Source: Isurus oxyrinchus (Eukaryota). Taken from it: a DNA stretch of 64,000 nt. Numbering within the stretch: the first letter of the stretch is position 1; every line of letters begins with the position of its first letter. The translations under genes and the position numbers were made by a program. A model generated the notes under the pieces. It was given only the letters and a program-made list of their open reading frames with translations. It was not told the DNA's origin and searched no databases. Of the stretch, positions 1,570 through 61,699 are shown in pieces. The stretch is taken from positions 231,322,001 to 231,386,000 of the forward strand of contig JANJGN010000003.1 of the NCBI GenBank assembly GCA_026770705.1. The letters run 5' to 3'.

Positions 1570-2680
1570 ATTTTTGAGTATTGCTGAAAGAAGAGACATG
1601 TCTAAGCTTTTTGTCTTGCACTCATCATATTAATACAGGGCCCTGTTCTTTGCAGACAGAAAGAGCATGTACACACGTTGCGCCTGTTTCAGCTAAACAA
1701 ACTAAGTGATAGCCATTACTCAGGTCAATGCCTTGACCAATCAGGGTCAAGCGGCATGGTTTAAATTTCAAATGCCTGACGGTTAACTGTCAATCACCAT
1801 TACTGGTGCATTTTCCATGGCAATGTTTCTACTAATCAGGGTCCACTTGCCAACCAGGAGGAGGAGGTGGGGGTCATAATGTTGATCAAGGAATCAATTA
1901 TAGCAGTGAGTAGGGATGCTATCCTGATCATCACACGAGGCCATATGGGTAGAAGTAAGAAACACAAAAGGGGCAAGCACACTGTTGGGTGTGTGCTATA
2001 GGCCCCCAAACAGTCAGGGAGAGATGGAGGATCAAATATGTATTCAACTTTCAGAGAAGTGTATGAATAATAAGGCAGTAATAGTAGCGGATTTTAACTA
2101 CCCAAATAATAACTGGGATAGTTTTAGTGTGCAAGGTAGGGAGGGAGCAAAATTCTTAAGTTGCATCCAGGAGAACTTTTTTAGCCAGTACATAGAAAGC
2201 CCAACAAGGGAGGGGGCAGCACTGGACCTAATATTCGGAAATGAGCACAGACATTTGGAAGATGTATCAGTAGGGGAGCATTTTGGAGATAGTGACCATA
2301 ACTCAGTTAGATTTAGGATGGTTATGGAAAAGGATAAGGTTGGGCCGGGAATAAAAGTTCTAAACTGGTCAGAAACTCTCGTAAAATTTAAGAAGTATTT
2401 AGATATTCACTTGCCTTGTCATAGCCTCCAAGGCTATGGGCCAAGCCCTGGAAAATGGGATTAGTGTAGTCAGATCTTTGTTAACTGATGTGAACACAAT
2501 GGGCCGAATAGCCTCCTTCTGCACTGTAAACATCTATGAGTCAATCAGCATTCTCTTCTCATACAGTATAAATTGCTGTTTTCCCCTTATAGTGGTATCC
2601 TTGCGCAGTGTCCTGATGAGTTCAAGACGGAAAGTTAAGACATGTCTCTTTTTTCAGCATTCCTCAAGTTCTGTACTGTC
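1570..2680. mobile_element. Short Penelope-derived element with inverted ends carrying degenerate hammerhead motifs, interrupted by a CR1 fragment
   Basis: 1575-1628 (tgctgaaagaagagacatgtctaagctttttgtcttgcactcatca) is the approximate reverse complement of 2613-2667 (ctgatgagttcaagacggaaagttaagacatgtctcttttttcagca). Confidence 0.6.
1856..2542 (+). mobile_element. CR1 LINE fragment: APE endonuclease segment joined directly to the 3' end
   Basis: ORF 1985-2464 has GVCYRPP, DFNYP and GDSDHN endonuclease motifs, then the C-terminal FKKYLD...GYGPSPGKWD. Tail ends ctatgagtc. Same family as 33505-37737. Confidence 0.9.
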
Positions 2681-2949
2681 AAACAACAACTAAAACAATT
2701 GTTATCATTGTTTTATAATGTGTTGTCACCATTTTATATTTCAGGTAAATATTTATTGCCAGCCAGAGGCCGGCAGCTCTGCACCACACTGGGATTGGTG
2801 GCTACTGCTGGTATGGCAGAAGGTTAGGGAGGAAGAGGAACCATGGATGCAAAGTCTGGGATCTTGCTGAGGCCAGGTTGGCAGGCCCCAGCGAAGGCAG
2901 GGTGGGGGGGGGGGTATCTATGGGAGGTGGCCAGACATGTTGGACAGGG

Positions 2950-3236
2950 TATGATGTTGTATGTGCCTGTATGCCACTGTAATGTAAAGGTGCTCGGCAC
3001 CTTGGGACTGGAGAATAGCATCACCCACGGTTTGATGGATAGAGTCACATGGTAATGGACTGAGAGCAGTCTAGAAAGAACGCTCTGGAACCAGCCTGCA
3101 TGGAGGTAACAGCACCATGCAGGTGAGTAATCTGGGATCGGTAAATAGTTAAATGCTACCAATAAACAGTTCATGTTTAAATATACAAGTCTCAAGGTCT
3201 CATCATTGAGGCACCACTGCACACCATGGTACAATA
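2950..3236 (+). repeat. 5' LTR (5' terminus degraded)
   Basis: Aligns with 6070-6374 (e.g. tgttgtatgtgcctgYatgYcactgtaatgtaaaggtgctc). Contains AATAAA and ends ACAATA. Confidence 0.85.
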
Positions 3237-3255
3237 TGGTTGGCAGCGGTGGGAT
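3237..3255 (+). promoter_or_regulatory. Primer-binding site complementary to the tRNA-Leu 3' end
   Basis: TGGTTGGCAGCGGTGGGAT equals the reverse complement of the vertebrate tRNA-Leu 3' end ATCCCACCGCTGCCA-CCA with one extra T. It immediately follows the LTR. Confidence 0.85.
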
Positions 3256-4403
3256 ATCAGCACCATCAGCATAGTACAACAGCATAGTAGCAGGGGCCTC
3301 TACAAGATATCACATCAGAGATAGTACCATAATCTGACATGGTGATCTGCGGTAATATGAAAGGTGACAGCTAAATGCATGAACCCAAAACAGCATCCCA
3401 AGGTATGAAAACTAAAAGTAACTGATGCCAAACTAGAAAGATGCGCACCGAAGAAAAAAACTTGAAGAAAAAGTTAAAGAAACTTCACTACAGACTTGGC
3501 AGTGAGGAATCCGGAGTGAGTGAAAGTCCATAACAGAAAATTGCAAGAGCCTAGTGACACAGTTCACAAGATGGTGAGCAAAGATACAAAAAAAAAGCTG
3601 TACTTACATTTTAGAATAGGTGGCGGTCTCAAGGGTTCCGCAACCAGAGGCCAGCTGAAAGAGAGCTACAAAGTAAAAAATAAAGGTTTTTAAAAAAAAA
3701 AAAAATCTCAAAAAATGGCTGGCAAAGTTAAATAGAGAAACCTGCAGAGTAGTAAGAAAACAAGAAAAAAAGCCTGCAGAGTTTAAGAGGAAGGGGACCC
3801 TTTTCAGTTGGGTCCCTGTCTTCTTGCACAGAGTGAGACGATGAAATCTTAGTTTTAAAAGTACTCTAACTGAAAGGAAATAATGTCAAACGCCCTCATT
3901 TTAGCAGATTCAAGCTTCCAGCCCACTGCAGTACAGGACAGTACCAAAAGTTGGAATGCTCTGTACCTGCATTGATATATTTGTTGCAAAATACAACATT
4001 TGCAAAGCTTTTCTTTCAAAGTTGAGTCAAAAATCCCCCAAGCAACAAGTCTCTAAAAAAAGACAGAGGGAAGCCAACAGTATTCTAGCAACTACAGCTT
4101 AAGTTTAAAAATTGGTTACTGCACATATTGTCTTAAAGAGGCAATGGAATTTAAAGTTGTAACTACAAGAAAATAGCCATGGACAGAGAATTGAAGGACA
4201 ACCCAGATTGAGGGCAACTCTGTCAAGGGCAGCAAGAGACCTCAGAGAAAGGGCAATTCCACTGATGGCAACAAGAGTCCCCAGAGAGTGGGCAACAAAA
4301 AGCTCCAGAGCAAGGGCAATGGTGGGCTCCAGGGAGAGGGAGCCAAAGGACCCTGGAGCAAGGGACACAGATGGCAGTGCAGAGTGAGCAGGGAGTTTTG
4401 AAT

Positions 4404-5470
4404 GAAGAAAAATTATCTGAGGTAACGTGAGAGAAGTAAAATGTGAAACAAGTAAATTAAGCTGTTCTACAGGAGAATGTTCACATTGGAGCTAAGCTGG
4501 AGCAGTTAAAGTACAAGATTCAAGCTGAATATATAGCTCTGAAAATGCACGATAAACTGAAGTATTCAATGAACCAAAATTTTCAAGATCTGAACAAACA
4601 AATTGCAGAGATGACACAAAGGTATCAGGAGGAAATAATGATCCTTAATACCACAGTTGGCAAATGAAAGCAGAAGTTGGGAAAACTCAACCAGATGTTC
4701 AGCCAGGTAAAACAGCAGGCAGATAAGGCACGCAAAGAAGTCGTGACCCTGAAAGACACTTTGGAGAATCAATATGGAGCTATGAGAAACATAAGGAGCT
4801 AAAAAGGATGTTGAATATTACTTAAGAGAAAGCTGCGTTGCGATTATCAGTAGCAACAAAACGATGCAGAGGCCCAGAGTGAGTTGGCAAGAGGTCAACA
4901 AGAAAATGAACAGTCGAAAGAACAAATGATTGTCCTTCAAGATCAAATGCAAAAGGAACGTGTATCCATTCAGCAACATGAAGGAATGAACACTGTCTTA
5001 AACAGCAGAATGGAAGCACAGCAGAAGAAACTCAAAGAGATTTTATTGAATTACAGGAAAGCTCAAGACGAAACAAGTGAACTTCATAAATAAAAGGAAA
5101 ACCTGTTGACAGACCTCCACATTCTACAAGAATTCCTTAGGACAAAGTTTATTATTCTGGAAAATTACGAAGAGAAGCAAAATGACTTTAAAGTCGCTCT
5201 GAACAAACTGAAGAACCAGTTGGCAGAGAAGTCTCAGCAATGTTCTATATTCCAGGAGGAAGCTGAAAGCTACAAGAAACAGACTGAAGATCTGAAGAAG
5301 CAGTTGAATGGAAAAGAGAAGGCATTGAAAGGAAAAGCCATAGAACTTTCCAAACTGTGAACGGAAAATGAAACCACGAATTGCACAATTACAGAACTGA
5401 AACGAGTTAAGACTTTGCGGAACAGACCTGGCCAACAGTGAATCCAAAATGAAGGACAAGGACAAAGTTC
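4404..5470 (+). pseudogene. UACA: Decayed UACA-like coiled-coil coding fragment inside the LTR element
   Basis: ORFs 4884-5093 and 5106-5360 are in the same frame across one TAA: EILLNYRKAQDETSELH...LQEFLRTKF...YEEKQNDFK...LKNQLAEKSQQCS, versus recalled UACA EILANYRKGQEEIVTLH...IQECIKVKY...FEECERKFK...LKDQLSEQTQKYS. Upstream YIALKMHDKLK...DLNKQIAEMTQRY resembles YVPLKVSEDMK...DLNRKLLDVTQKY. Several stops and frameshifts. Confidence 0.75.
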
Positions 5471-6056
5471 TGCTGCAGACAGGAAATGTAAATCCGACAC
5501 TGAAGCATGAGGAACTAGAAGAAGAAAGAACACTGGGGGTCTCAGCCGTACTGAGAACCATGGAGCTGAATGAAAAGACTCGTAAGCTTGCAAAATGGTT
5601 TGAAAATAATACAGCAAGCAGGTGTTTGGCTGAAATTGTGAAACAAGTGGAAATGAAGATTCCATTTGCAAAACGTCGAGCTGCAGAAAGAACATGGTGG
5701 ATTTCATGGAAAAAGAAAATTCGAGTCCACTCTCTGAATGAGCAGAGTGCACATTCTCTGCAGAAGGAACGGGACAAACCCACAGTGTTCGTAGAAGGTA
5801 GATGAGTTGTTAATAAAGGGAAACGCAACTCGAAAGAGAGAAAAAGCTAATCAAAAAGAGGTGGTCCAGTACCAGAAACGCAGATCACTACTATCATTTC
5901 TGCAAATGTGACAGCCCAAGATGTGGAAGAACTGTCAAGCCTCAAGACTGTCTGAATTTATAAAGTCAGAAGCTTGAGATGGGGGAGAAGGGATAGCAAG
6001 TGAAGATTGTATTACAAATTATGTATACTCTGCTGGAAGGAAAAATTTTCTTTGGC

Positions 6057-6068
6057 AAAGAAAGGGGG
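6057..6068 (+). promoter_or_regulatory. Polypurine tract
   Basis: AAAGAAAGGGGG ends one base before the TGTT start of the 3' LTR. Confidence 0.8.
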
Positions 6069-6069
6069 T

Positions 6070-6374
6070 TGTTATATGCTGTTGTATGTGCCTGCATGTC
6101 ACTGTAATGTAAAGGTGCTCAGCAGAGCAAGGGTTAACGTGGGACTGTAGAATAGCACCACCCACGGTATGATGTATAGAGTCACATGGTAGTAGACTGA
6201 GAGAACAGTCAAGGGAGAACACTCTGGAACCAGCCTGGATGAAGGTAACAGCATCATGCAAGACAGTAATATGGGATCTGTAAATAGTTAAAGGTTAAAA
6301 TAAATGGTTCATGTTTAAATATACAAGTCTCAAGATCTCATTGTTGAGACATAAGAGTGCACCTTAATACAACA
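6070..6374 (+). repeat. 3' LTR
   Basis: TGTT...AACA termini, AATAAA near 6299, direct repeat of 2950-3236. Confidence 0.88.
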
Positions 6375-10540: not shown

Positions 10541-12738
10541 AGAACTGAAATTATGGTTTACCAAGGAAGTTAAAAGAGAAGGCCCGGTGGTGAGCGGAGA
10601 ACTCTGAATGAACAGGAAGATTAACAGAGAAGCCAAGAGAGCATCAACAGAGGTGGTCCAAGACTAATGATGGAAAGCCAAAACTGGCAAACAGAAACAG
10701 CAAGATCTAGCTGGACAAAAGGAGGTAACTTGAGAAGAGGAGACAGGTAAGCTGGAAATGGGAAAATAGAATGCTTGACACAAAACTGGGATGGAAAGCC
10801 TGGAAGAGACCCAAAACGCAAGAATCTAAAGACAGAGAGGGAGAATTTCTGTTGTTTGATCCCAATCTCCGTCTTTAACTTTGCAAGAAACAAATGAAAT
10901 GGCTGTTTTAATCTGTTCATGCTGTTTCGCTATAGGTTCCATCAATCTTCCCAGAGCAGGAGCACCATCAGAGAAATTCCAGCTTGTATAAAAAGATTTT
11001 AAAAATATATAATTATATATATATTTATTCATTCACGGGATGTAGGCTTTGCTAGCTGGGTCAGCATTTATTGCTCATCCCTTGTTGCCCTTGAGAAGGT
11101 GGTGGTGAGCTGCCTTCTTGAACTGCTGCAGTCCATGTGGTGTAGGTACACCCACAGCGCTGTTTGGAAGGGGAGTTCCAGGATTTTGAGCCAGCGACAG
11201 TGAAGGAACAACAATATATTTCCAAGTCAGGATGATGAGTTCCTTGAGGGGAAACTCCAGGTGGCAGTATTTCCATCTATCTGCTGCCTTTGTGCTTCTA
11301 GGTGGTAGTGATCTTGGGTTTGGAAGTTTTTGTCGAAGGAGCCTTGATGAATTTCTGCAGTGCATCTTGTAGATGATACACACTGCTGCTACTGTGTGTC
11401 GGTGGTGGAGGGAGTGAATGTTGGTGGATGTGGTACCAAGCAAGCGGGCTGCTTTGTCCTGGATGATGTCCAGCTTCTTCAATGTTGTGGGAGCTGCACT
11501 TATCCAGGCAAGTGGGGAGTATTCCATCACACTCCTGACTTGTACCTTGTAGATGGTAGACAGGCTTTGGGGAGTCAGGAGGTGAGTTACTCGTCGCAGG
11601 ATCCCTAACCAGTGACCTGCTCTTGTAGCCACAGTATTTATACAGCTAGTCCAATTCAGTTTCTGGTTAATGGTAACTCCCAGGATGTTAATAGTGGTGG
11701 ATTCAGTGATAGTAATGCCATTGAACATCAAGGAGCGATAGTTGGATTTTCTCTTGTTGGAGATGGTCATTGCCTGACATTTGTGTTGCGCGTATGTTAC
11801 TTGTCACTTGTCAGCCCAAGCCTGGATATTGTCCAGGTCTTGCCGCATTTGGACATGGACTGCTTCAATATCTGAGGAGTCGCAAATGGTGCTGAATATT
11901 GTGCAATCATCAGCAAACATCCCCACTTCTGACCTTATGATGGAAGGTCATTGATGAAGCAGATGAGGATGATTGGGCCTAGGACACTACCTTGAGGAGC
12001 TCCTGCAGTGATGTCCTGCAGCTGAGATGACGGACCTCCAACAATCACAACTATCTTCCTTTGTGCTGGATATGACTGTAACCAGTACAGCGCCTTCCCC
12101 CTGATTCCCATTGACGCCAGTTTTGCTAGGGCTCCTTGATGCTACACTCAGTCAAATGCTGCCTTGATGTCAAGGGCAGTCACTCACACATCACCTTGGG
12201 AGTTCAGCTCTTTTATCCACGTTTAAACCAAGGCTGTAATAAGATCAGGACCTGAGTGGCCCTGGCAGAACCCAAACTGGGCATCAGTGAGCAGGTTATT
12301 GCTAAGCAACTGCCACTTGATAGCACTGTTGATGACCCCTTCCATTACTCGACTGGTGCTTGAGAGCAGACTGACAGGGCAGTAATTGGCTGGTTTGGAT
12401 TTGTCCTGCTTTTTGCATATAGGACATACCTGGGCAATTTTCCACATAGCCGGGTAGATACCAGTGTTGTAGCTGTACTTGAACAGCTTGGCTAGGGGCA
12501 CGGCAAGTTCTAGAGTACAAATCTTCAGTACTACTGTCGGAATATTGTCAGGCCCCATAGTCTTTGCAGTATCCAGTGCCTTCAGCTGTTTCATGATATC
12601 ACGTGGAGTGAATTGAATTGGCTGAAGACTGGCATCTGTGATGCTGGGGACCTCTGGATGAGGCCGAGATGGATCATCCACTTGACACTTCTGGCTGAAG
12701 ATTGTTGCGAATGCTTCAGCCTTATCTTTTGCACTGAT

Positions 12739-14521
12739 TTCCTCGGACAGAGGCCTAAACAATCCCCGTCCACCACTACTCTCCTCCGTCTGGCTGAACT
12801 TGTTCTCACACTGAACAATTTCTCCTTCAACTCCTCTCACTTCCTCCAAATAAAAGGTGTGGCTATGGGTACCCGCATGGGCCCCAGCTATGCCTGTCTC
12901 TTTATGGGGTATGTGGAACATTCCTTGTTCCAGTCCTACTCTGGCCCCCTTCCACAACTCTTTCTCCGGTACATCGATGATTACTTCGGTGCTGCTTCGT
13001 GCTCTCGTCGGGACTTGGAAAAATTTATTAATTTTGCTTCCAATCTCCACCCCTCCATCATTTTCACGTAGTCCATCTCTGACACTTCCCTTCCCTTCCT
13101 TGACCTCTCTGTCTCAATCTCTGGTGATAGACTGTCCACCAATATCCATTACAAACCCACCGACTCCCACAGCTACCTCGACTACAGCACACCCCGCTTC
13201 CTGTAAGGACTCCATCCCATTCTCTCAGTTCCTTCGCCTCCATCGCATCTGTTCCGATGATGCTACCTTCAAAAACAGTTCCTCTGACATGTCCTCCTTC
13301 TTCCTTAGCCGAGGTTTTCCACCCACGGTCGTTGACAGGGCCCTCAACCGTGTCCGGCCCATCTCCCGCGCATCCGCCCTCACGCCTTCTCCTCCCTCCC
13401 AGAAACATGATAGGGTCCCCCTTGTCCTCACTTATCACCCCACCATCCTCCGCCATTTCCGCCAACTCCAGCATGATGCCACCACCAAACACATCTTCCC
13501 TTCACCCCTCTATCGGCATTCCGTAGGGATCGCTCCCTCCGGGACACCCTGGTCCACTCCTCCATCACCCCCTACTCCTCAACCCCCTCCTATGGCACCA
13601 CCCCATGCCCACGCAAAAGATGTAACACCTGCCCCTTCACTTCCTCTCTCCTCACCGTCCAAGGACCCAAACACTCCTTTCAAGTGAAGCAGCATTTCAC
13701 TTGCATTTCCCCCAACTTAGTCTACTGCATTCGTTGCTCCCAATGTGGTCTCCTCTACATTGGAGAGACCAAACGTAAACTGGGCGACTGCTTTGCAGAA
13801 CACCTGCGGTCTGTCCGCAAGAATGACCCAAACCTCCCTGTCGCTTGCCATTTTAACACTCCACCCTGCTCTCTTGCCCACATGTCTGTCCTTGGCTTGC
13901 TGCATTGTTCCAGTGAAGCCCAACACAAACTGGAGGAACAACACTTCATCTTCCGACTAGGCACTTTACAGCCTTCCGGACTGAATATTGAATTCAACTT
14001 TAGGTCTTGAGCTCCCTCCTCCATCCCCACCCCCTTTTTGTTTCCCCCTTCCTTTTGTTTTTTCCCAATAAATTATATAGATTTTTCTTTTCCTACCTAT
14101 TTCCATTACTTTTAAATATTTTTAAATCTTTTATGCTCTCCTCACCCCCACTAGAGCTATACCTTGAATGCCCTACCATCCATTCCTAATTAGCACATTC
14201 GTTTAGATAATATCACCAACTTTAACACCATTGTGTTCTTTTGTTCTGCTGTAGGTGACATCTTTTGATGATGCTTTTATCACTGCTTGTTTGTCCCTAC
14301 AACCACACCACCCCCCTCCACTTCTCTCTCTCTCTCCGCACCCCGCCCCCCCCCACCCCCCCCACCCCCACACACACCTTAAACCAGCTTATATTTCAAC
14401 TCTTTCTTGGACTCGAACTCAAGTTCTGTCGAAGGGTCATGAGGACTCGAAACGTCAACTCTTTTCTTCTCCGCTGATGCTGCCAGACCTGCTGAGTTTT
14501 TCCAGGTAATTCTGTTTTTGT
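12739..14521 (+). mobile_element. Penelope-like element (Neptune-type), 5'-truncated: RT, GIY-YIG endonuclease and pLTR
   Basis: QIKGVAMGTRMGPSYACLFM and LRYIDD RT motifs. NLVYCIRCSQCGLLYIGETKRKL...EHLRSV GIY-YIG domain. Pyrimidine-rich 3' region ending in a hammerhead-containing pLTR. Confidence 0.93.
14422..14460 (+). ncRNA. Minimal hammerhead ribozyme motif in the Penelope pLTR (variant core)
   Basis: AGTT-CTGTCGA-A-GGGTC-atgag-GACTC-GAAAC-GTC-AACT. Stem I AGTT/AACT, stem II GGGTC/GACTC, very short palindromic stem III. Core is CTGTCGA rather than CTGANGA. Confidence 0.6.
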
Positions 14522-44029: not shown

Positions 44030-46093
44030 AGACCATAAGACCTTAAGACATAGGAGCAGAAATTAGGCCATTCGGCCCATTGAGTCTGCTCCGCCATTCA
44101 ATCATGGCTGATAAGTTTCTCAACCCCATTCTCCCGCAACCTTTGACCCCTTACCAATCAAGAACCTATCTATCTCGGTCTTAAATACATTCAATGACCT
44201 GGACTCAACAGCCTTCTGTGGCAATGAATTCCATATATTCACCAATCTCTGGCTAAAGAAGTTTCTCCTCATCTCTGTTCTAAAAGGTCTTCCCTTTACT
44301 CTGAGGTTGTGCCCTTGGGTCCTAGTCTCTCCTACTAATGGAAACATCTTCCCCCACGTCCACTCTATCCAGGCCTTTCAGTATTCTGTAACTTTCAATC
44401 AAATCCCCCCTCATCCTTCTAAACTCCATCAAGTATAGACCCAGAGTCCTCAAATGTTCCTCATATGCTAAGCCTCTCATTCCTGGGATCGTTCTCGTGA
44501 ACCTCCTCTGGACCCTCTCCAGGGCCAGCACATCCTTCCTGAGATACGGGGTCCAAAATTGTTCACAATATTCTAAATGTGGTCTGACCAGATCCTTATA
44601 AAGCCTCAACAGCACATCCCTGCTTTTATATTCTAGTCCTCTCGAAATAAGTGCCAACATTGCATTTGCCTTCCTAACTACCGACTCAACCTGCAAGTTA
44701 ACCTTAAAAGAATCCTGGACTAGGACTCCCAAGTCCCTTTGCACTCCAGATTTCTGAATTCTCTCCCCATTTAGAAAATAGTCTACCCCTCTATTCCTCC
44801 CACCAAAATGCATGACCTCACACTTACCCACGTTGTATTCCACCTGCCACTTCTTTGCCCATTCTCCTAAACTGTCCAAATCCTTCTGCAGCAGCCCCGC
44901 CTCTTCAACACTACCTGTCCCTCCATCTATCTTTGTATCATCTGCAAACTTAGCCAGAATGCCCTCAGTTCCTTCACCTAGATCACTAATGTATAAAGTG
45001 AAAAGTTGTGGTCCCAACACTGACCCCTGGGGAACTCCACTAGTCACTGGCCGCCATCCTGAGAAGGACCCCCTTATCCGCACTCTCTGCCTTCTGCCAG
45101 ACAGCCAATCTTCTATCCATGCTAGTACCTTGCCTTTAACACCATGGGCTCTTATCTTACTGAGCAGCCTCCTGTGCGGCACCTTGTCAAAGGTCTTCTG
45201 GAAGTACAAATAGATAACATCCATTGGCTCTCCTTTGTCTAATCTACTTATTACCTCCCAAAAGAATTCTAACAGATTTGTCAGGCATGACCTCCCCTTG
45301 ATGAAACCATGCTGACTTTGCCCGATTTTACCATGCACTTCCAAGTATTCTGAAATCTCATCCTTAATAATGGACTCTAAAATCTTACCAACGACCGAGG
45401 TCATGCTAATCGGCCTGTAATTTCCCGTCTTTTGCCTCACTCCCTTCTTAAACAGGGGGATTACATTAGCAATTTTCCAGTCCTCTGGGACCCTCCCTGA
45501 CTCGAGTGATTCCTGAAAGATCACCACTAACGCCTCCACTATCTCTTCAGCTATCTCCTTCAGAACTCTGGGGTGTAATCCATCTGGTCCAGGTGATTTA
45601 TCCACCTTCAGACCTTTCAGTTTTCCTAGCACCTTCTCCTTGGTAATGGCCACCATACTCACCTCTGCCCCCCTGACTCTCTTGAACTTTGAGGATGTTA
45701 CTTGTGTCTTCCACCGTGAAGACTGACGCAAAGTACCTATTCAGTTCCTCCGCCATTTCTTTGTTCCCCACTACTACTCCAGCGTCATTTTCCAGTGGTC
45801 CAATGTCCACTTTTGCCTCTTTCTTACCCTTTATATATCTAAAAAAACTCTTGCAATCTTCTTTTATATTACTGGCTAGTTTACCCTCATATTTAATCTT
45901 CTCCCTCCTTATTTCTTTTTTAGTTGTCCTCTGTTGGTCTTTGTAGGCTTCCCAATCCCCTGGTTTCCCACCGCTCTTCGCCACATTGTATGCTTTCTCT
46001 TTAGCTTTTATGCTGTCCCTGACTTCCCTTGTCAGCCATGGTTGCCTCGTCCTCCCTTTATTATGCTTCTTCTTCCTAGGGATGAATTTTTGC
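44030..46093 (-). mobile_element. Young 5'-truncated CR1 LINE (RT largely intact)
   Basis: 469-aa ORF with KSPGPDG, NYRPIS, QHGF, GVPQGSVLGP and FADD. Two frameshifts. (CTTATGGT)-type tail. Confidence 0.96.
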
Positions 46094-58777: not shown

Positions 58778-60132
58778 ACCATAAGACATAGGAGCAGAAA
58801 TTAGGTCATTCGGCCCATCGAGTCTGCTCCGCCATTCAATCATGGCTGATAAGTTTCTCAACCCCATTCTCCCGCCTTCTCCCTGTTACCTTTGATCCCC
58901 TTACCAATCAAGAACCTATCTACCTTGGTCTTAAATACACTCAATGACCAGGCCTCCACAGCCTTCTGTGGCAATGAATTCCATATATTCACCAATCTCT
59001 GGCTAAAGAAGTTTCTCCTCATCTCTGTTCTAAAAGGTCTTCCCTTTACTCTGAGGCTGTGCCCTTGGGTCCTAGTCTCTCCTACTAATGGAAACATCTT
59101 CCCCACATCCACTCTATCTAGGCCTTTCAGTATTCTGTAAGTTTCAATCAGATCCCCCCTCATCCTTCTAAACTCCATCGAGTATAGACCCAGAGTCCTC
59201 AAACGTTCCTCATATGTTAAGCCTCTCATTCCTGGGATCGTTCTCGTGAACCTCCTCTGGACCTTCTCCAGGGCCAGCACATCCTTCCTGAGATACGGGG
59301 TCCAATATTGCTCACAATATTCTAAATGTGACCTGACCAGAGCCTTATAAAGCTTCAGCAGCACATCCCTGCTTTTATATTCTAGTCCTCTTAAAATAAA
59401 TGCCAACATTGCATTTGCCTTCCTAACTACCGACTCAACCTGCAAGTTAACCTTAAGAGAATCCTGGATTAGGACTCCCAAGTCCCTTTGCACTCCAGAT
59501 TTCTGAATTCTCTCCCCATTTAGAAAATAGTCTATGCCTCTATTCTTCCTACCAAAGTGCATGACCTCACACTTCCCCACGTTGTATTCCATCTGCCACT
59601 TCTTTGCCCATTCTCCTAAACTGTCCAAATCCTTCTGCAGCCTCCCCGCCTCCTCAATACTACCTGTCCCTCCACCTATCTTTGTATCATCTGCAAACTT
59701 AGCCAGGATGCCCTCAGTTCCTTCATCTAGATCATTAATGTATAAAGTGAAAAGTTGAGGTCCCAACACTGACCCCTGCGGAACTCCACTAGTCACCAGC
59801 TGCCATCCTGAGAAGGACCCCCTTATCCCCACCCTCTGCCTCCTGCCAGACAGCCAATCTTCTATCCATGCTAGAACCTTGCCTCTAACACCATGGGCTC
59901 TTATCTTACTGAGCAACCTCCTGTGCAGCACCTTGTCAAAGGCCTTCTGGAAGTCCAAGTAGATAACATCCATTGGCTCTCCTTTGTCTAACCTACTCGT
60001 TACCTCCTCAAAGAATTCTAACAGATTTGTCAGGCATGACCTCCCCTTGATGAAACCATGCTGACTTTGCCCGATTTTACCATGCACTTCCAAGTATTCT
60101 GAAATCTCATCCTTAATAATGGACTCTAAAAT
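58778..60132 (-). mobile_element. Young 5'-truncated CR1 LINE with uninterrupted RT C-terminal reading frame
   Basis: 431-aa ORF with YLDFQKAFDKV, GVPQGSVLGP and FADD through to the natural stop. Near-identical to 44030-45380. Confidence 0.96.
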
Positions 60133-61699
60133 ACCTTTGTCATTGTTCCGCACAATTTCCTACTTTACCTAATATGCATAGAACCTAGTCAACCTCTTCA
60201 GATTGAACTTATCCTTTCCTGTCCCTACACCAGTTCAATATCATCAATAAATTTTGAGCAGTTTGTAATAAGCTTCTGAATTTAAGCTATTGTTATAAAT
60301 TTGTCCAGGACCTTTCCTTTTTCAACTATAGCAGCTGCTATTTAATAGATTATCATACAATTAATCCTCAAGCCCATTCCTTAACTGAGTCCATTATTTT
60401 AACCAGCACTGATTTAATACGAATAAGCACTATTAAGTATAGTGATAACCGGGGTGGATTCAAAGCCAAGTCAGAGAGATGAAAGGATGGTGTGGCAACA
60501 TATTTGAAACTATAGGGGTAATTTAATCACCCAAGGATGGGCAGGAAAGGGTTGCTGGTGTGGGGGGAGGGGGGCAGGATTAAATTGCTAACAGTGTGGA
60601 ATCTGACCCCAACCCGCCCGAGAACCTACTTCCAGTTTAACTATGGGTTTGGGGTCACATGAGTAACTGCTCAAGTGGCGGGCGGATGACTATGATATTT
60701 AAATGAGGCTGTGTCTCACAGATTGTGTCAGCAATTAGATTTAACTCTTCCAGTGTGGGTTTGATTCCACTATCATCTGTTGGAGACAGGGGTCCCTCAA
60801 ACAATGGAGAATGCGTGTCCAGAAGAATTCTTGCATAGGAACCTCACTCACCATGTGATATAAACAGCTGCTAAACACAGTTCCTCTGTTTCTTTAAAAG
60901 TGAATGTCCCTGTGAATGTTTTTGAGGAGCCTACCTGATAAATACACAGTCATCTGCTTCTGACTGAGTATTTGCACCTCAAAACTAAAGGATTCTTGAG
61001 ACAAATTTTGTTGTAAATGAACAAACAACTATCAGCTGGATTATGCTTATTTTCATCTGCTTCCCATTAAAAACCTCAGCCTAGTCACTAGATGTGATAC
61101 ACCCACTGTATAGGCTTACAATGGATCCAATATGGCAGACATTGTGCACCCATTCATTCCATGCTAGAGGCATGTTGCCCCTCTGTATTAGGTTGGGCTC
61201 CTCCATAGGCATCCAGGGTGTGAGCAAGAGATAATCAACAGGTTGATTATAATATTTAAATAAAGGCCCTACATTTGTTGCAGGACCTTTTTGTGAAATT
61301 GATTTGCCCCAGTGTCTGACTCACTACACGATAACCCACTTAGCAAACCATGCTGCTAACAGGCAGCAAATACTCTGCATCAGCGCTATTGAATCAGCAC
61401 ATCCACTGCGTAAAGGTTTGTGGCTGTTTTGTACTTTTAGGCTGCTGATTAACTTCTGTTTTTCATTGCTTACTTTCTGCATTCTGCAACTAATTTGAGA
61501 TTGCTCCTAATAAGATTTTCCTGGTGCTAGACTTGTTGGCCACGAAAACGGTTTTATTGTAATCATGGGTAGCCCGATAGCTCTGCTTTTGGGACTGGAG
61601 GAACAACAAAAAAGACAAGAGAACAGGAGCAGCTTTCAGGAAAAAGAGGAAGAGGGCACTCATGGAGCAGAATTATATGTACACGAGACCATACACATT

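Follow-up and report, generated by a model that had tools for sequence, protein, structure and literature searches.

Capture of host gene pieces by LTR retrotransposons through template switching, with chimera formation and secondary retroposition, has been described by Tan et al. (2016; PMC5131818). The animal LTR retrocopies treated in the sections of that paper used here are partial mRNA pieces lying in LTR elements; they include multi-gene chimeras and sense, in-frame cargo, and secondary retroposition as a non-autonomous element is part of the description. The same sections present these retrocopies as young and confined to individual loci. Maize Bs1, as outlined there, carries pieces of three host genes with switch points common to its copies, exists in one to five copies and has one piece out of frame. 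The plant TR-GAG elements, in the portion of PMC4350172 used here, are shorter than 4 kb and have LTRs, a primer-binding site (PBS), a polypurine tract (PPT), a 5-bp target duplication, a single GAG open reading frame and no pol.

The element studied here occupies positions 2950 to 6374 of the window, the whole stretch of 64,000 nucleotides analysed (C3:231322001-231386000 of the shark Isurus oxyrinchus; the genome searched amounts to 4.98 Gb). It resembles the retrocopies of Tan et al. in its partial mRNA pieces, its multi-gene chimerism, its sense, in-frame cargo and its secondary retroposition as a non-autonomous element. Unlike the loci reported in that part of the literature, a single cassette is present here in thousands of copies, in several subfamilies and backbones, with an apparent frame constraint; unlike Bs1 as outlined there, at least 2,445 copies are found, with three in-frame pieces and in a vertebrate. 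Cargo-free sister elements of the genome (L193-L212) fit the TR-GAG description as far as that portion of the source goes, whereas the cargo elements keep only the N-terminal domain of the capsid, or just the start codon, and carry host sequence. None of the 60 gag-N matches extends into the C-terminal continuation of gag, which the sisters have.

Gypsy polyprotein elements of the K02A2.6-like type (P0006, P0008), for which we take "Mag clade" to be the label, share gag homology, the integrase tail and the tRNA-Leu PBS with the cargo elements. Their RT, RNase H and integrase core are absent from the cargo elements, and the LTRs of 20 pol-bearing copies differ. Capture, chimerism and re-copying are known; the scale and the frame constraint were not found in print. 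The literature search returned no description of the family, its scale or its frame constraint, and the family may already stand in Repbase or Dfam.

Structure of the element

All features described here lie on the forward strand. The 5′ LTR (2950-3236) has decayed first bases, and the 3′ LTR (6070-6374) runs TGTT...AACA. Identical bases are found in 231 of 263 aligned columns of the pair (87.8%, K2P 0.134); laxer gaps give 85.2% over 284 columns and a K2P of 0.166. The PBS (3237-3255) abuts the 5′ LTR and pairs, apart from one extra T, with the 3′ end of the genome's tRNA-Leu(TAG/AAG) genes; two of the three tRNA loci scanned for this match were called Leu and one Trp. The 5′ leader (3256-4178) is common to the subfamily and ~78-80% identical to it, and a polypurine tract (6057-6068) precedes the 3′ LTR. 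The repeat pair, the tRNA-Leu PBS and the PPT with its TGTT...AACA LTR had all been proposed in the first-pass annotation and proved real, the repeats being 85-88% alike. At 3268-3300, after the true PBS, there is a second, decayed unit of LTR end and primer site, which is clearer in L110 and L108. ARAGORN called a tRNA-Trp(CCA) at L296 1453-1523, a locus retrieved for its tRNA-Leu-type 3′ end.

Target-site duplications were examined at 13 cargo copies. They are perfect 5-bp repeats in L109, L094 and L103 and have one mismatch in L104 and L110; none is clear at the window copy or the other seven. No protease, RT, RNase H or integrase core was detected in the element, a tblastn search with the full Gypsy polyprotein P0008 giving nothing better than E 1, which agrees with the enzyme-free interior noted earlier. 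Thus, the element lacks the enzymes that an autonomous Gypsy element supplies for itself, while paired TG...CA LTRs, PBS, PPT, short target duplication and a Gypsy-related gag are those of a Ty3/Gypsy-derived LTR retrotransposon. Pfam searches with the window's own frames gave weak coil matches only. The frame opened by the ATG at 4179 has 11 stops before 5400, some of them within an off-frame stretch, and the window copy is therefore dead.

Host sequences in the interior

Comparison of the interior with the genome's own UACA exon (L031; C25:4881192-4883918, open for 911 codons) revealed three blocks: 4414-4632 (L031 2366-2584, 74% DNA identity), 4627-5299 (2681-3356, 79%), which follows a shared 102-nt deletion, and 5292-5417 (3799-3925, 80%), which follows a shared 450-nt deletion. 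In the window copy the second block is off frame from ~4798 to 4868. The host UACA is 98.4% identical to the Carcharodon protein over the captured span. When the frame 4854-5357 was compared with proteins, four shark UACA sequences (53-64% identity, E 2e-48 to 3e-35) were the only matches among 1322 candidates, and neither generic coiled coils nor a transposon protein came out best. By these protein and DNA matches the donor is the UACA gene itself and not a paralog; the alternative sources suggested in the first-pass annotation (RAI14, ANKRD24, ANKRD35) can be set aside. Its UACA-like coil frame at ~4404-5470 was right in kind but too long, as UACA ends near 5410. In one subfamily (L091, L092, L097, L101, L303) the end of the UACA piece (L031 3831-3909) is placed before its start, a sign of tandem duplication of the cargo followed by deletion.

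The stretch 5480-5667 holds remnants of two host genes other than UACA. One of them, at 5602-5667, derives from exon 12 of TPR (52/66 bases, E 6e-10). A segment carried by longer relatives matches Pfam PF25481 (E 9e-7) and whale-shark TPR (59%, E 3e-40). Thirteen exons of the host TPR gene were mapped on C16; every intron has AG/GT borders, and the frame contains no stop. Exon junctions 3/4 to 8/9 are crossed gap-free in 13, 9, 13, 13, 22 and 13 copies respectively, and 29 of 57 unique copies cross at least one. As six exon junctions are crossed without introns, TPR came from spliced mRNA. Intron-free partial host mRNA between LTR-element segments is thus seen for TPR, while the UACA and C19 pieces (the latter described below) fall within single exons; the UACA piece, lying inside one exon, cannot demonstrate intron loss or mRNA capture. 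The earlier proposal of host mRNA capture therefore holds through the spliced TPR of the relatives and not through the UACA piece on which it had been based. In six of 60 copies TPR is retained and UACA is reduced to a trace or less. That such TPR-only copies represent the ancestral state was discarded, since by eye the UACA trace persists in them.

The other remnant (5480-5576; 70/97 bases, E 2e-7) comes from a 1.7-kb coiled-coil exon at G000:C19:47.785 Mb, which was reached via the segment between UACA and TPR in the elements. The exon has an open frame of 576 codons, is bounded by AG/GT and has no flanking element sequence. In an RNA-type contig of a related organism it is covered exactly, with different sequence joined on either side. 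The elements contain ~270 of its bases at 66-80%, against 97 in the window copy. No match to the exon was obtained in PDB or Pfam, and the element's piece retrieved only hypothetical proteins from the protein atlas. A relationship to UACA was ruled out on comparison; we presume a resemblance to the large exon of ninein. Read in their own frames, all three donors look like long coiled coils.

Gag, the pol tail and the LTR backbones

The window copy retains the gag start codon and the first seven codons (4179-4199); it has lost the capsid N-terminal domain found next in relatives. A purine-rich repeat linker (4200-4413) comes next, with units of 24, 15, 39 and 48 nt across copies; no origin was found for it. 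The last codons before the purine tract (5916-5963) match, by eye, the C-terminal tail and stop of the Gypsy polyprotein, that is the integrase end, of pol-bearing elements of the genome (L280, L269, L205). Longer relatives carry ~95 gag codons upstream of the cargo, and their order is capsid N-terminal domain, UACA, C19 piece, TPR and pol stop. In the cargo elements the C-terminus of gag and pol are replaced by pieces of three host genes. The first-pass reading of gag-pol replaced by UACA was thus correct as to the presence of UACA and the loss of the enzymes; it missed two of the three cargoes and the surviving gag start and integrase tail. A linker of 85 codons lies between gag-N and UACA (L091, oriented 4049-4303; window ~4350-4410) and may be a fourth capture. 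No host gene was traced for it in the protein atlas or in the own-genome search, the loci of the latter being taken without inspection for host exons.

The cargo-free sisters have a full gag and, mostly, part of the protease; their LTRs are similar and their primer site is the same. UACA, TPR or a same-orientation RT was found in none of 20. They form a large vertebrate family of ~3-kb TR-GAG-like LTR elements with no RT; a gag piece of this family gave 18,450 first-look candidates. Sister gag matches the Gypsy polyprotein P0008 (40%, E 8e-62), and its relatives have the order RT, RNase H, integrase. These gag relatives, and maps in which no env-sized segment is left unassigned, speak against an endogenous retrovirus of the transducing type.

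Pfam gave no name for gag beyond a sub-threshold PNMA match. The predicted fold of sister gag (pLDDT 89) is a two-domain capsid, closest to the PNMA2 capsid (Z 9.2, a modest value for a helical protein; rmsd 5.9, 150 aligned), and the top fold rows are nearly all capsids. Foldseek returned nothing at E 0.001, the best being again the PNMA2 capsid (E 0.07). The predicted helices up to residue 96 superpose on the Ty3 capsid N-terminal domain (Z 6.8, rmsd 2.6, 70 aligned), and comparison of the predicted structure matches residues 98-166 to capsid C-terminal domains. Gag alignments end at residues 95-98 in 29 of 60 copies, and identity falls beyond. On this model, gag in the cargo elements is cut at the predicted boundary between the capsid domains.

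The same tRNA-Leu primer site is present in 5 of the 20 pol-bearing elements examined, and none of the 20 is a partner with matching LTRs. The cassette was found in at least three LTR backbones. The same cassette stands in different LTR/tail backbones in L101, L102 and L103 as compared with L202, L201/L194 and L205, which points to recombination between co-packaged elements.

Copy number, spread and age

A 24-base UACA probe, chosen among the best probes, matched 2,445 places with up to 2 mismatches, while the control matched 0. The probe detected 68% of 95 known copies, giving a loose estimate of ~3,600 copies. All 40 scored matches carry the same cargo near full length. UACA and/or TPR accompany 85 of the 90 gag-N matches examined among 150 listed (28/30, query included, and 57/60). 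Shared ends and deletions, together with the probe matches, bear out the suggestion in the first-pass annotation that the element belongs to a non-autonomous LTR family of a cartilaginous fish, here a shark, which carries and has amplified a UACA-derived coil. The switch points are shared between copies, as is expected from secondary retroposition.

LTR pairs of 12 other cargo copies diverge by K2P 0.155-0.29, compared with 0.134 (0.166 with laxer gaps) for the window copy. The rate in the part of PMC10587355 used here, 7e-10, is for another species and is per generation, not per year. Where three galeomorph-type sequences differ from Pristiophorus (90 sites), the longer copies agree with the galeomorphs by 76 to 4; at lamnid-specific positions (21 sites) the older state prevails in them by 17 to 2. 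These counts put the capture at about the root of the lamniform line or shortly earlier. A FastTree tree of 24 copies and host genes separates all of the copies from the host genes with a support of 0.999; the point at which they attach is weakly supported (0.83). Short contigs of a second organism contain what is apparently the same insertion at 96-99% identity, one of them reaching 28 bases past the left boundary. No RNA-type contig was listed over the cargo stretch.

The capsid domain is missing through one shared join in 32 of 58 close copies, the window copy included; 25 keep the domain and 1 is intermediate. The capsid-less copies are as old as the rest of the 58, and the branch has spread. 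The cargo shrinks repeatedly among copies.

Reading frame of the copies

Frame tests were carried out as per-site counts on real copies only. Of the shared deletions that span at least 30 nt, 11 are distinct, and each has a length divisible by 3 (UACA 282, 753, 102, 453, 210, 450 and 126 nt; TPR 117, 33, 96 and 186 nt); among deletions confined to a single copy the figure is 21 of 46 (Fisher p 0.0013; 0.004 under a microhomology null). The raw table has an in-frame mode in 19 of 23 clusters; the other four were read as the same deletions merged with private indels, and a 282-nt TPR cluster (96 + 186) and those below 30 nt were not counted. The most shared small indel among 150 copies is of 3 nt (19 copies), and no frameshifting one exceeds 6 copies. 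Short repeats occur at the deletion ends (6-11 nt at 6/6 UACA ends tested; 3, 4, 4 and 13 nt in TPR).

Lineage-fixed changes lean synonymous in the host frame: 37 N : 22 S in UACA (44.2 N expected, OR 0.51, p 0.023) and 14 : 11 in TPR (19.3 expected, OR 0.33, p 0.01). No shortage of nonsynonymous changes is seen in the other two frames. Changes common to both copy groups show no constraint (OR 0.91), and pooled third-position tests on the cargo were not significant (p 0.10 for UACA, 0.19 for TPR); gag-N has a third-position excess (20/39 vs 196/602, p 0.022). One fixed stop was seen in the lineage-specific set where 4.3 were expected (P 0.07); a count of 0 stops vs 8.0 also takes in changes on the host lineage and exaggerates the deficit. 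Where TGA stops are frequent, the codons are of CpG type. A first N/S test on singletons was dropped, being biased towards transversions.

Phase is kept at 57 of 77 UACA-to-C19 joints and 61 of 80 C19-to-TPR joints, and in several copies a single frame still extends from UACA across TPR as far as the region of the pol stop. Some of the agreement at the joints is to be expected, since ~60% of matching words in these coil exons are in frame in any case; many copies also share few joint events. Gag-to-UACA phase is kept in 26 of 58. The start-to-UACA phase of the capsid-less branch looks random (6, 10 and 8 of 24), and its repeat units are mostly multiples of 3 (42/71). These results point to masters that were likely under selection for a single open frame running from the start of gag to the stop of pol, a mild constraint that shows best in the older masters.

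Interpretation and alternatives

The window element is best explained as a dead copy of a non-autonomous Gypsy-type LTR retrotransposon that needs translatable filler and not a specific protein, a reading to which we give a probability of about 0.55. A gag-type non-autonomous element would have taken up host mRNA pieces by template switching inside the particle and would rely for its copying, in trans, on Gypsy elements that have pol and share its tRNA-Leu primer site. Variants with one frame from gag start to pol stop would be copied more, most likely because translation keeps the RNA from decay or aids assembly: long translation up to the 3′ LTR could spare it nonsense-mediated decay or couple it to particle assembly. 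The coils would then probably serve as filler, as the branch that lost the capsid domain (32 of 58 close copies) spread nevertheless and the cargo shrinks. That all three donors are apparent coils would be explained by A/G-rich coil exons tolerant of in-frame cuts.

A landing of a LINE-made processed UACA pseudogene in one LTR element after its insertion is scarcely credible. LINEs are abundant in the window by eye, but the same near full-length cargo in 40/40 scored matches, with shared ends and deletions, does not fit a single-copy event of the kind that the first-pass annotation had named as a rival. The cargo is internal, partial and chimeric, and has neither poly(A) nor an internal target duplication. 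Neutral hitch-hiking, whereby the A/G-rich element RNA switches onto A/G-rich coil mRNAs and codon-periodic microhomology yields in-frame events, is an improbable account, though one with some force: the donor spans are 38-43% A, the in-frame null is ~0.6, repeats lie at the deletion ends, the pooled tests are non-significant and shared changes have an OR of 0.91. It is opposed by the 11/11 shared in-frame deletions, at p 0.004 even under the microhomology null, compared with 21/46 of single-copy ones, by the 3-nt size of the top shared small indel (19 copies against at most 6 for a frameshift) and by a synonymous excess that is confined to the host frame and recurs in two genes.

The depletion of amino-acid changes, and not only of stops, could also indicate a functional fusion, in which the capsid N-terminal domain docks in the helper particle and the coil replaces the C-terminal dimer contact or serves as a TPR decoy at the nuclear basket, to the benefit of the element's own RNA. 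The end of the gag piece at a domain boundary (Ty3 N-terminal Z 6.8; 29/60 ends at 95-98), the gag-N third-position excess (p 0.022) and three donors resembling long coiled coils are in its favour. We hold it doubtful, as the 32 copies without the domain still multiplied, no zinc knuckle is left for RNA binding, cargo content varies widely between subfamilies under a mild constraint, and ~66 recognisable bases of TPR remain in the window copy. A wider proposal is speculative to the same degree: shark Gypsy parasites might have evolved a novel class of protein, a rod of capsid-N and UACA/ninein-like/TPR pieces, long selected and swapped between LTR backbones as a module, with coil capture as a repeated strategy of non-autonomous elements of cartilaginous fishes for boarding helper particles.

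LTR-mediated gene capture is seen here as a lasting, high-copy mode of existence in a vertebrate germline and not as a rare accident. Thousands of dated copies make it testable whether non-autonomous LTR RNAs need translation in cis for copying. Thousands of UACA-, TPR- and C19-like fragments can also mislead shark gene annotation and read mapping.

Surroundings of the element

Elsewhere in the window, the frames 44325-45740 and 58861-60159 (reverse strand) and 12514-14007 and 1928-2461 (forward strand) have by eye the look of what we take to be CR1-type LINE and Penelope-type elements. To the left of the element, a LINE-like fragment is enclosed by a 54-nt inverted repeat (1574-1627 and 2614-2667) whose arms are 85% complementary.
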